From NCBI RefSeq assembly GCF_050920415.1, contig NZ_CP169309.1: DNA of 64,000 nucleotides; one strand, written 5' to 3'. Made by a program: the position numbers and the translations under genes. The notes under the pieces were generated by a model. That model was not told where the DNA came from. It made no database searches and saw nothing but the letters and a program-made list of their open reading frames with translations. How positions within the stretch are numbered: position 1 is the first letter of the stretch; every line of letters starts with the position of its first letter. Positions 325 through 1,681 of this stretch are shown here, one piece after another. Source of the DNA: Escherichia coli. GTDB lineage: Bacteria; Pseudomonadota; Gammaproteobacteria; Enterobacterales; Enterobacteriaceae.

Positions 325-387
325 ATAACTCAAGTTATAAAAAATAGCAATAACCTTTGTTATTTTACTTTGGATAACCGTAGTTAT
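325..387. promoter_or_regulatory. OR operator cluster: three ATAAC-N4-GTTAT palindromes (325-338, 350-363, 374-387) with divergent pR/pRM
   Basis: Three 14-bp palindromes at about 24-25 bp spacing between divergent cro and cI. Confidence 0.65.
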
Positions 388-399
388 AGATTTGTGGGT

Positions 400-1107
400 A
401 TGAAAACATTCGCAGAAAGACTAAATGCAGCCATGAGCTTAGCTGGGGTATCACAATCACAGCTTGCAGACATGGTTGGAATATCTCAGCCAGCCATACA
501 GAAGATGTCGTCCGGTAAAACAAACGGATCTCGCAAGATGGTTGAATTAGCCAATGCTTTAAAAGTGCGCCCTGAATGGCTTAGTTCTGGTATTGGTGAA
601 ATGAGGGATGGTGCACATGAAGAACCATCCAATGTCCGTGAGTCATCTTTAAAAGCTGTGGTATGGGAAGACATTAAAAGAAACGATGACGAGTTTGTTG
701 CGTTGCCTCTTCTTAACGTTTCGCTTTCAGCTGGAAGCGGTAGCTGCGAGCTAGAGGAATCATCGGAGTTCTCTTTGGTTTTCAGAAAGCACTATCTGAA
801 AAAGATGGGAGTATCTGAAAGATCAGCCAAGCTAGTTAGGGTTGTAGGGCAAAGCATGGAACCTACGCTTCACGATGGCGATGTTGTTGGTGTTAACACG
901 CAAGATACCACAATCAGAGATGGTAAAACCTACGCTATTTGCCAGTCTGATTTGTTACGAGTAAAAACATTAATCGCCACCCCTACATCGGTGATAATCA
1001 GATCAATAAATCGCGAAGAGTACCCGGATGAAGTAATGGATAGAGATGAATTTCATGAAACCGTAAGGATTATTGGCAGAGTATTCTGGTCGTCTCATAG
1101 TTGGTAA
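400..1107 (+). CDS. cI: CI-type prophage repressor, N-terminal HTH plus C-terminal LexA/S24-like autopeptidase domain (235 aa from ATG 400; track start 370 is a TTG extension)
   Basis: HTH (SQSQLADMVGISQPAIQKM), S24 motif GQSMEPTL with downstream Lys; divergent from cro; not lambda cI sequence, so heteroimmune. Confidence 0.85.
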   Translation: MKTFAERLNAAMSLAGVSQSQLADMVGISQPAIQKMSSGKTNGSRKMVELANALKVRPEWLSSGIGEMRDGAHEEPSNVRESSLKAVVWEDIKRNDDEFVALPLLNVSLSAGSGSCELEESSEFSLVFRKHYLKKMGVSERSAKLVRVVGQSMEPTLHDGDVVGVNTQDTTIRDGKTYAICQSDLLRVKTLIATPTSVIIRSINREEYPDEVMDRDEFHETVRIIGRVFWSSHSW

Positions 1108-1147
1108 CCGATAATCAGAAGAAGACTTACGGAAGTGCGGAGGGATA

Positions 1148-1444
1148 ATGGAATTTCTGATAGTTTTTGTTGTTGTTTTGGTCATCATTCTTTTTGTTTT
1201 GCTAAGCATTAGCAAAAAGCTATCTCAAATGATTGAACATAGCTCTAATCGCGCAAAAGAAGAAGAGCATCTAATTGATATAAAAGAGATTCTCTCTGAT
1301 ATAAAAATCACATTAGATGAAATAAAATACACAACAGATCTAATTGAACAGTATAAAATACCAACCCCAAACGAGAGAAAATCAATAGATCAATATCGTA
1401 TTGACTTAGAAATCGACGAAATGCTAAGCAACAGAAAGGACTAA
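1148..1444 (+). CDS. Small single-pass membrane protein in the rex position, co-oriented with cI (98 aa)
   Basis: GGAGGG RBS then ATG; N-terminal hydrophobic helix FLIVFVVVLVIILFVLLSI then charged helical tail; visibly AT-rich; terminator follows. Confidence 0.6.
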   Translation: MEFLIVFVVVLVIILFVLLSISKKLSQMIEHSSNRAKEEEHLIDIKEILSDIKITLDEIKYTTDLIEQYKIPTPNERKSIDQYRIDLEIDEMLSNRKD

Positions 1445-1449
1445 AAACA

Positions 1450-1474
1450 CCCGGCCTCAGCGCCGGGTTTTTCT
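1450..1474 (+). terminator. Intrinsic terminator ending the cI-moron (pRM) transcript
   Basis: CCCGGC-loop-GCCGGG hairpin followed by TTTTTCTTT. Confidence 0.7.
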
Positions 1475-1598
1475 TTCCCTGCCGTTCACCATCCAATCAA
1501 CCATCCTCATCATAGACAAGCATCAAGCCAAAGGTAACACCTTCACCCAGCACGCAAGCCCTCAAACACCAATCAATCAGCAACATTTACAAAAATAA

Positions 1599-1681
1599 AA
1601 TACCTTTGTTATCCATCACTTATAACTTATTTACCACAAAATATAAATTAGGTTATTGACCACACCTATAACCTAAGTTAT
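1599..1681. promoter_or_regulatory. OL operator cluster / pL region (perfect ATAAC-N4-GTTAT at 1668-1681; near-matches at 1599-1612 and 1643-1656)
   Basis: Same palindrome family as OR, located between the pRM-operon terminator and nutL/N. Confidence 0.5.

Follow-up and report, generated by a model that had tools for sequence, protein, structure and literature searches.

The window analysed here (64,000 nt of Escherichia coli contig NZ_CP169309.1, assembly GCF_050920415.1) opens with the immunity region of a lambdoid prophage, in which a cro gene (nt 288–64, minus strand) and a cI gene (nt 400–1107, plus strand) diverge from a short non-coding gap. The locus is most probably the genetic switch of this prophage, with 14-bp dyads of the form ATAAC-N4-GTTAT as the putative operators of both cI and Cro; a probability of about 0.9 was given to this reading. 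It is carried by the sites, their placement, the families of the two proteins, and a three-way covariation of the site with the recognition helices of cI and Cro, each of which was observed directly. The switch is an ordinary one, and the understanding of phage switches is left unchanged by it.

Putative operator dyads between cro and cI and upstream of N

Three palindromes without mismatch were located between cro and cI, at nt 325–338 (right operator OR1, ATAACTCAAGTTAT), 350–363 (OR2, ATAACCTTTGTTAT), and 374–387 (OR3, ATAACCGTAGTTAT), as had been described in the first-pass annotation of this DNA; the even spacing claimed there also held (24–25 bp), the centre-to-centre distances being 25 and 24 bp. 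The recurrence of the same palindrome family at the left operator (OL) and pL, likewise proposed there, was borne out, with a perfect site at nt 1668–1681 (OL1, ATAACCTAAGTTAT), a site with one mismatch at nt 1643–1656 (OL2, ATAAATTAGGTTAT), 25 bp from the former, and a site with two mismatches at nt 1599–1612 (AATACCTTTGTTAT), in which the right half was perfect and both mismatches fell in the left half. In the whole window, four perfect matches to ATAAC-N4-GTTAT were present versus 0.07 expected, a count reached in none of 100 shuffles. All of them were within two short non-coding gaps of the regulatory region and none elsewhere. Given the local AT-rich composition, about 0.0005 perfect sites would be expected in nt 289–399.

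Dyads with up to two mismatches numbered 45 in the window versus 23.6 expected (0 of 100 shuffles). The excess, which probably reflects uneven base composition, persisted after subtraction of the eight in the immunity region. One-mismatch dyads were also seen in host DNA at nt 18186 and 62361. A two-mismatch site at nt 315–328 was considered as a fourth OR operator and rejected: it overlaps OR1, is absent in the L055 and L074 lineages, and is probably non-functional.

Putative promoters and their fit to the sites

Promoters were inferred from consensus and conservation. The putative pL (nt 1656–1684, plus strand; TTGACC, 17-nt spacer, TATCTT) scored 9 of 12 in a promoter scan and lies at the place homologous to the annotated pL of phage HK620. 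For pR, the candidate on the minus strand at nt 350→322 consists of a -35 hexamer TTGCTA (350→345), a 17-nt spacer, and a -10 hexamer TATCTT (327→322); it scored 8 of 12, below the scan threshold, and has the same geometry and -10 hexamer as pL. The scan itself proposed TTTATA (341→336)-18-TATAAT (317→312). The former was preferred because its arrangement is retained by relatives (TGGACA-17-TATCTT, TTGCTC-17-TATTTT, and TTGACT-17-TATATT) while TATAAT is lost in them; OR1 covers either candidate. The likely pRM (nt 364–392, plus strand) consists of TTTACT (364–369), a 17-nt spacer, and TAGATT (387–392).

With these assignments, OR1 lies in the pR spacer and overlaps the pR -10 by 3 bp; OR2 shares its first base with the pR -35 and ends directly before the pRM -35; and OR3 fills the pRM spacer and touches the pRM -10. 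Similarly, OL1 lies in the pL spacer with a 3-bp overlap with the -10, and the last base of OL2 overlaps the pL -35. This overlap of the sites with the sigma-70-like hexamers of divergent pR and pRM, and of pL, is the geometry of lambda and 434.

The pRM -10 ends 7 nt 5′ of the cI ATG (nt 400), and cI lacks a Shine-Dalgarno sequence; the pRM hexamers and a gap of 6–7 nt to the ATG are conserved in relatives. The short conserved gap and the missing Shine-Dalgarno sequence suggest a leaderless cI message, which probably starts at or beside the cI ATG, like that from lambda pRM. In cro, a Shine-Dalgarno sequence (AAGAGG) sits 7 nt 5′ of the ATG at nt 288.

The cI and Cro proteins

The predicted cI protein (235 aa) has an N-terminal 434-like helix-turn-helix (HTH) domain with the recognition helix SQPAIQKM and a C-terminal S24 autopeptidase domain (Pfam Peptidase_S24, E 1e-17; HTH_3, E 8e-7), and possesses the cleavage motifs Ala111-Gly112 and Ser152, the latter in GQSMEP. 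Cro (74 aa) is an all-alpha HTH protein with the recognition helix VTQPAVHKW; it matched YdaS_toxin (E 1e-17), HTH_3, and P22_Cro in Pfam, and PHROG 35, transcriptional repressor. The recognition helices of the two proteins thus begin alike, with Q-P-A.

Conservation and covariation in related loci

A scan of IMG/VR with the cI protein returned 80 loci (59–100% identical), 76 of which have an ATAAC-type OR triple. Among these 76, the half-sites were nearly invariant and the central 4 bp varied. The halves of OR1 were fixed across 10 sequence variants, with the centres tcaa, ccaa, atga, atgg, and ccta; the centres were cttt, aatt, catt, and tttt in OR2, cgta, cgtg, cacg, ttcg, and agaa in OR3, ctaa, ctag, ctgg, and ttag in OL1, and ttag, ttaa, ctaa, taaa, and tata in OL2. 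The deviant left half of OL2, ATAAA, was kept in 10 of 12 variants, and OR2, perfect here, was imperfect in most related lineages. All related lineages, even those whose half-sites had changed, had OR3 about 25 bp 5′ of the start of cI.

Once cI identity fell below about 72%, the half-site differed, at OR and OL together, and the recognition helices of cI and Cro differed too. Four classes were distinguished: ATAAC, with cI SQPAIQK and Cro (T/S)QPAVHK (the window and its relatives); ACAAC, with cI SQAAIQK and Cro SQQAVYK (locus L076); ATAGC, with cI AQPSVWK and Cro KQPSVWA (L079); and ATCGC, with cI AQSS(I/V)N(R/K) and Cro AQSTICD (L077, L078, L080, and L082). The motif-by-locus count matrix was block-diagonal, and four control half-sites gave counts near zero.

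Starting from L076, a second scan gathered 77 loci having the helix [ST]QAAIQK, with 36 distinct N-terminal domains; they are only 34–46% identical to L076. A(C/A)AAC-N4-GTTGT was present 25 bp 5′ of cI in 74 of the 77 loci and 72 bp 5′ in 75, and ATAAC-N4-GTTAT with at most one mismatch in only three. In this set, the helix predicts the operator site. Scans for further members of the ACAAC and ATAGC classes returned no close relatives of L076 or L079. Taken over both scans, operator position 2 is T where cI has Pro31 (ATAAC) and C or A where it has Ala (A(C/A)AAC…GTTGT). Tentatively, and at somewhat less than even odds, the cI/Cro family may form a natural specificity series on a 434 scaffold, in which one residue of the helix varies with one base pair of the operator and cI, Cro, OR, and OL change jointly while the promoter scaffold is kept.

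Two of the related loci deviated. In L074 (IMGVR_UViG_2558860438_000004, nt 2501–3206) the cI frame is broken past the recognition helix, with stops from residue 49, and cro and all five operators are intact despite the broken cI; a decaying or derepressed prophage, or a sequencing error, is possible. L075 (IMGVR_UViG_2775506964_000001, nt 2330–2500), with a cI 74% identical, has three ATAAC-N4-GTTAT sites and an extra ATAAC-N7-GTTAT dyad; no YdaS-type cro was found on the opposite strand within about 230 bp upstream, and the partner regulator may belong to another family.

The first-pass annotation had assigned the dyads to OR and OL of a lambdoid immunity region, and the gene families, promoter overlap, presence of nutL and N, half-site conservation, and covariation agree with that identification. 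Its further statement that the operators define the immunity specificity of the prophage goes too far: the motif defines a specificity class and not necessarily a single immunity group, since PA28-type cI proteins (74–84% identical) have the same half-site and recognition helix. The half-site would thus set a specificity class common to the PA28-type Shiga toxin (Stx) phages.

The OL cluster and its mosaic scaffold

The window shares its flanks with phage HK620 (AF335538): nt 1–64 are 100% identical, the identity ending at the cro stop codon, and nt 1591–2070 are 91% identical. The curated HK620 OL1, OL2, OL3, and pL correspond base for base to nt 1667–1683, 1642–1658, 1620–1636, and 1656–1691 of the window (offset 955), so that the sites at nt 1668–1681, 1643–1656, and 1622–1635 occupy the positions of HK620 OL1, OL2, and OL3 (the last at nt 2575–2591 of locus L002), respectively. 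Of the OL grouping proposed earlier, the two strong sites were retained; the site at nt 1599–1612 is not in the OL3 position, since it lies 44 bp from that at nt 1643, and the site at nt 1622–1635 (ATAACTTATTTACC) had been missed.

The latter has a perfect left half and a degenerate right half; its left half is ATAAC or ATAAT in all ATAAC-type loci, and in relatives of the ATCGC type a third, full site lies 21 bp from OL2. The right half of the distal site ('OL4', nt 1599–1612) follows the lineage: GTTAT here, GATAT in the ATAGC lineage, GCAAT in one ATCGC lineage, and GTATT in HK620, where the whole site (AATATCCTTTGTATT) matches HK620's own consensus. Because the halves of these two sites are conserved or follow the lineage-specific half-site, both are probably real, and OL probably consists of four sites, two strong (nt 1668 and 1643) and two weak (nt 1622–1635 and 1599–1612).

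A tract, AAAAATAAA, was observed at nt 1591–1600, just 5′ of the distal OL site. It is common to L001, L047, L055, L058, L079, L082, and HK620 (L002 nt 2546–2555), and is thus kept across differing operator specificities and even with an unrelated repressor (HK620). It might be an UP-element or an integration host factor (IHF)-type feature; a UP-element/IHF-type feature lies upstream of lambda pL. The OL scaffold seems to be older than the specificity it carries. The mosaic junctions are sharp, at the cro stop codon (nt 64) and around the OL scaffold; since the identity to HK620 breaks at these two places, the exchangeable immunity cassette extends from cro to about OL1, as in the classical imm hybrids.

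Proposed mechanism and alternative explanations

By analogy with lambda and 434, one dimer of cI or Cro would bind each dyad, the recognition helix of each monomer lying in one ATAAC half-site. The central 4 bp would not be read directly and would only tune affinity by indirect readout, the manner in which the central bases of the 434 and P22 operators act (PMC3317979). In the lysogen, pR and pL would be blocked by cI on O1, which takes up the spacer and -10, and on O2, which adjoins the -35. When bound at OR2, beside the pRM -35, cI would touch RNA polymerase and probably stimulate the leaderless cI transcript, and OR3 within pRM would serve negative autoregulation as well as the shut-off of cI by Cro. 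RecA-stimulated self-cleavage at Ala111-Gly112 would inactivate cI, leading to prophage induction.

Several points weigh against reading the locus as a switch of this kind. In the literature searched, this immunity type had no binding studies, footprints, or transcript maps, and the roles of OR1, OR2, and OR3 (affinity order, cooperativity, and pRM activation) are assumed. In two Stx phages, 933W and BAA2326, the switch does not follow the lambda scheme (PMC3317979, PMC5977221), and affinity order and cooperativity may differ from it here as well. The promoter hexamers are consensus matches only, and the best pR of the scan is not the one preferred. As regards the covariation, the ATAGC class is a single locus, and the [ST]QAAIQK set was gathered by a helix-containing peptide pattern, which tests the step from helix to site and not the reverse.

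A variant in which only one regulator, for example cI, reads the dyads and Cro recognizes other or partly other sequences in the same gap is unlikely. The helices of the two proteins do diverge past the first three residues (QPAVHKW in Cro versus QPAIQKM in cI), and the footprinted operators of BAA2326 are barely symmetric (PMC5977221), so that simple rules can fail; however, the Cro helix changes in step with the cI helix and the half-site in all four classes, and no second repeat family was visible in nt 289–399. Even less probable is that the cro-like gene encodes the YdaS 'toxin' of a prophage toxin-antitoxin pair with the dyads as its autoregulatory operators. YdaS_toxin is the best Pfam match of the 74-aa protein, a match of name only, and a toxin-antitoxin system within the immunity region of a cryptic prophage has reportedly been described, but the gene stands in a full lambdoid context, with an S24-type cI, nutR right after cro, and, on the pL side, a further operator cluster together with nutL and N, and the same module occupies the cro position of complete Stx phage genomes. 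A chance origin of the palindromes in AT-rich promoter DNA, or their survival as duplication relics, with no protein reading them, is scarcely credible: A+T is 69–75% in the gaps and two-mismatch dyads are in excess window-wide, yet the local composition hardly predicts a single perfect site, half-sites are conserved where spacers vary, and lineage-specific half-sites recur at OR and OL.

Genes and elements around the switch

Downstream of cI, orf98 (nt 1148–1444, plus strand) encodes an AT-rich 98-aa product with an N-terminal membrane helix and a coiled coil (PHROG 18389, unknown function), without a defence-system match in the PADLOC models, and is predicted to be transcribed together with cI. 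Its slot, which corresponds to the rex slot in lambda, holds unrelated genes in SH2026Stx1 and PA28; for this reason orf98 behaves like an exchangeable, lysogen-expressed 'moron'. The predicted cI-orf98 transcript ends at an intrinsic terminator, tIMM (nt 1449–1476, plus strand), with a 7-bp GC-rich stem, a T run, and a fold z-score of -3.5; the tIMM of HK620 is annotated just upstream of the HK620 OL sites, in the same order. The 115 nt just past the terminator (nt 1476–1590) contain 38% C and 10% G on the plus strand, a composition like that of Rho-utilization sites; the stretch could provide a backup stop for the cI transcript ahead of pL.

On the other side of OL, nutL (nt 1731–1770, plus strand), homologous to that of HK620, consists of boxA (nt 1731–1740, GCTCTTTAAC) and a boxB hairpin (nt 1755–1770, CCCGC-CGAAAT-GCGGG). 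It is followed by the N antiterminator gene (nt 1879–2184, plus strand), the first gene of the pL operon (PHROG 271, N-like, E 3e-36; weak match to Pfam N_peptide). Downstream of cro, nutR (nt 12–55, minus strand) has the same boxA and boxB as nutL, the shared boxB being CCCGCCGAAATGCGGG. No RNA family was found by Rfam within the immunity region.

Further right, genes for Erf, SSB, Ea22-like, and DUF551 proteins are followed by a lambda-type integrase gene (nt 11399–12469). From this gene content, cro/cI to integrase, the window holds the left arm of a lambdoid prophage; the right arm (replication, Q, lysis, and structural genes) is outside the window. The integrase, which has an arm-binding domain, directly adjoins a pectinesterase-like (ybhC-like) host gene, the two lying within nt 11399–13887, a neighbourhood suggesting insertion at or near what, from the gene order, is presumably the lambda attachment site.

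An IS3-family insertion sequence of 1,310 bp is located at nt 2891–4200. Its terminal inverted repeats are 25 nt long (TGAACCGCCCCGGG…), its orfA and orfB are encoded on the minus strand, and Rfam detects an ALIL frameshift pseudoknot in it (122 bits); its length and termini resemble those of IS629. The element is inserted within the pL operon, where it seems to interrupt a gene, the N-terminal part of which is at about nt 2807–2893 and the rest at nt 4228–5088.

Distribution and significance

Nucleotides 1–2200 of the window are 98.5% identical to the Stx1a-converting phage Stx1a_10051 and 91.5% to SH2026Stx1, and the cro-cI DNA is 78.7% identical to PA28 and a group of Stx1a phages. By tblastn, the cI protein is 99%, 95–99%, or 84% identical to those of Stx1a_10051, SH2026Stx1, and the PA28-type phages, respectively; the other phages listed have cI proteins less than about 41% identical, except one record in the 60–80% band. 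At least 80% of the region is held by 91 of 5,426 complete E. coli genomes.

Exact operator, promoter, and terminator coordinates are now assigned to a module that is found in E. coli genomes and in Stx1a-converting phages and that records annotate only as 'XRE family regulator'. The assignment predicts which phages have a common operator specificity, which matters for superinfection immunity and for the joint induction of Stx prophages. If the specificity series tentatively proposed above is true, mutual immunity, or cross-regulation of induction, would be expected between the prophage in the window and the Stx1a/Stx2a phages of PA28 type, although their cI proteins differ by 16%. Orthogonal repressor/operator pairs, and a small natural data set for HTH recognition rules, could also be drawn from the graded helix-to-half-site series.

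Comparison with known phage switches

The first-pass annotation had proposed a comparison with the operator sets of known lambdoid immunity types; the operators of 933W, BAA2326, H-19B, and HK620 were found to differ, and the half-sites of PA28 to match. In structure, the N-terminal domain of 434 repressor was the best solved match of the cI protein (gapless, residues 7–67 to 5–65, E 4e-7 by phmmer), the detected homology being limited to that domain, and 434 Cro was also among the closest solved matches. Operators in 434 are likewise 14 bp long, with conserved outer bases and a variable centre, and the Gln opening the recognition helix and the A at operator position 1 are both retained here. 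The 434 operator consensus is ACAA-N6-TTGT. Operator position 2 is T here (ATAA) versus C in 434 (ACAA), Pro31 here aligning with 434 Gln29, and the C at position 5 is also conserved here, unlike in 434. The relative class with SQAAIQK has ACAAC-N4-GTTGT, in agreement with the 434 pattern ACAA…TTGT. Gln30, Pro31, and Ala32 of the cI protein align with Gln28, Gln29, and Ser30 of 434 repressor, in which, as is said to have been described by Anderson, Ptashne and Harrison in 1987 and by Aggarwal et al. in 1988, Gln28 reads A1 and Gln29 reads base pair 2. These contacts would fit the invariant A1/Gln and the association of Pro with T and of Ala with C or A at position 2. Immunity of 434 itself was rejected on the sites, ATAA(C)…(G)TTAT here against the 434 consensus, and on the helix (QPAIQKM versus QQSIEQL).

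Similarity to lambda lies in the arrangement: pR and pRM diverge over three sites, here 24–25 bp apart; a further cluster lies on pL ahead of nutL and N; cI is followed by an accessory gene and a terminator; and the repressor is a self-cleaving S24 protein. In contrast to lambda, the operators are 14 bp instead of 17 bp, the repressor has a 434-type N-terminal domain, Cro does not have the lambda Cro fold but is an all-alpha HTH protein, and OL has two strong and two weak sites.

The cI and Cro of HK620 are unrelated to those here except for the HTH, and its operators (AATAC-N5-GTATT) form an odd-length dyad in contrast to ATAAC-N4-GTTAT; with only the flanks and OL scaffold in common, HK620 immunity was rejected. 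Like the window prophage, 933W and BAA2326 have lambdoid cI-type repressors with OR and OL operators, those being Stx-phage repressors. The N-terminal domain of 933W repressor has likewise been modelled on the 434 structure, but 933W immunity, considered because of an annotation note on PA28, was rejected on its 15-bp operators with other conserved bases, bound non-cooperatively (PMC3317979); no 933W record was among the cI matches at least 60% identical. BAA2326 immunity was rejected on a different repressor and on footprinted operators that are weakly symmetric (PMC5977221), and H-19B immunity on an unrelated cI and a locus without the motif.

Among the closest known systems is that of the Stx2a phage PA28 (PST3) and related Stx1a phages, in which the ATAAC/GTTAT half-sites, their positions, and their spacing are the same as here. 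PA28 cI, 84% identical, has an identical recognition helix, and PA28 Cro likewise has QPAVHK. Differences lie in the central bases of every operator, in OR2, which is imperfect in PA28 (GTTGT), and in the interval from cI to pL, which consists of different DNA. Putative PST3 operators were predicted in silico by Yin et al. 2015 (BMC Genomics 16:733, Additional file 6 Table S5; PMC4587872), and of these six, five match PA28 sites located in this analysis when read as reverse complements. On the PA28 record (KP682381; L003 nt 2781–2843 and 4012–4070), the OR1-3 of that table are the sites between cI and N and its OL1-3 those in the cI-cro gap; the OR and OL labels thus seem to have been exchanged. 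In a full-text literature search, which did not cover supplements, no main text contained any of the six exact operator strings. The motif class had therefore already been noted for an 84%-identical repressor, that of PA28; what appears new relative to the literature searched is the present immunity variant, the fit of the sites to the promoters, the fourth OL site, and the family-wide covariation.

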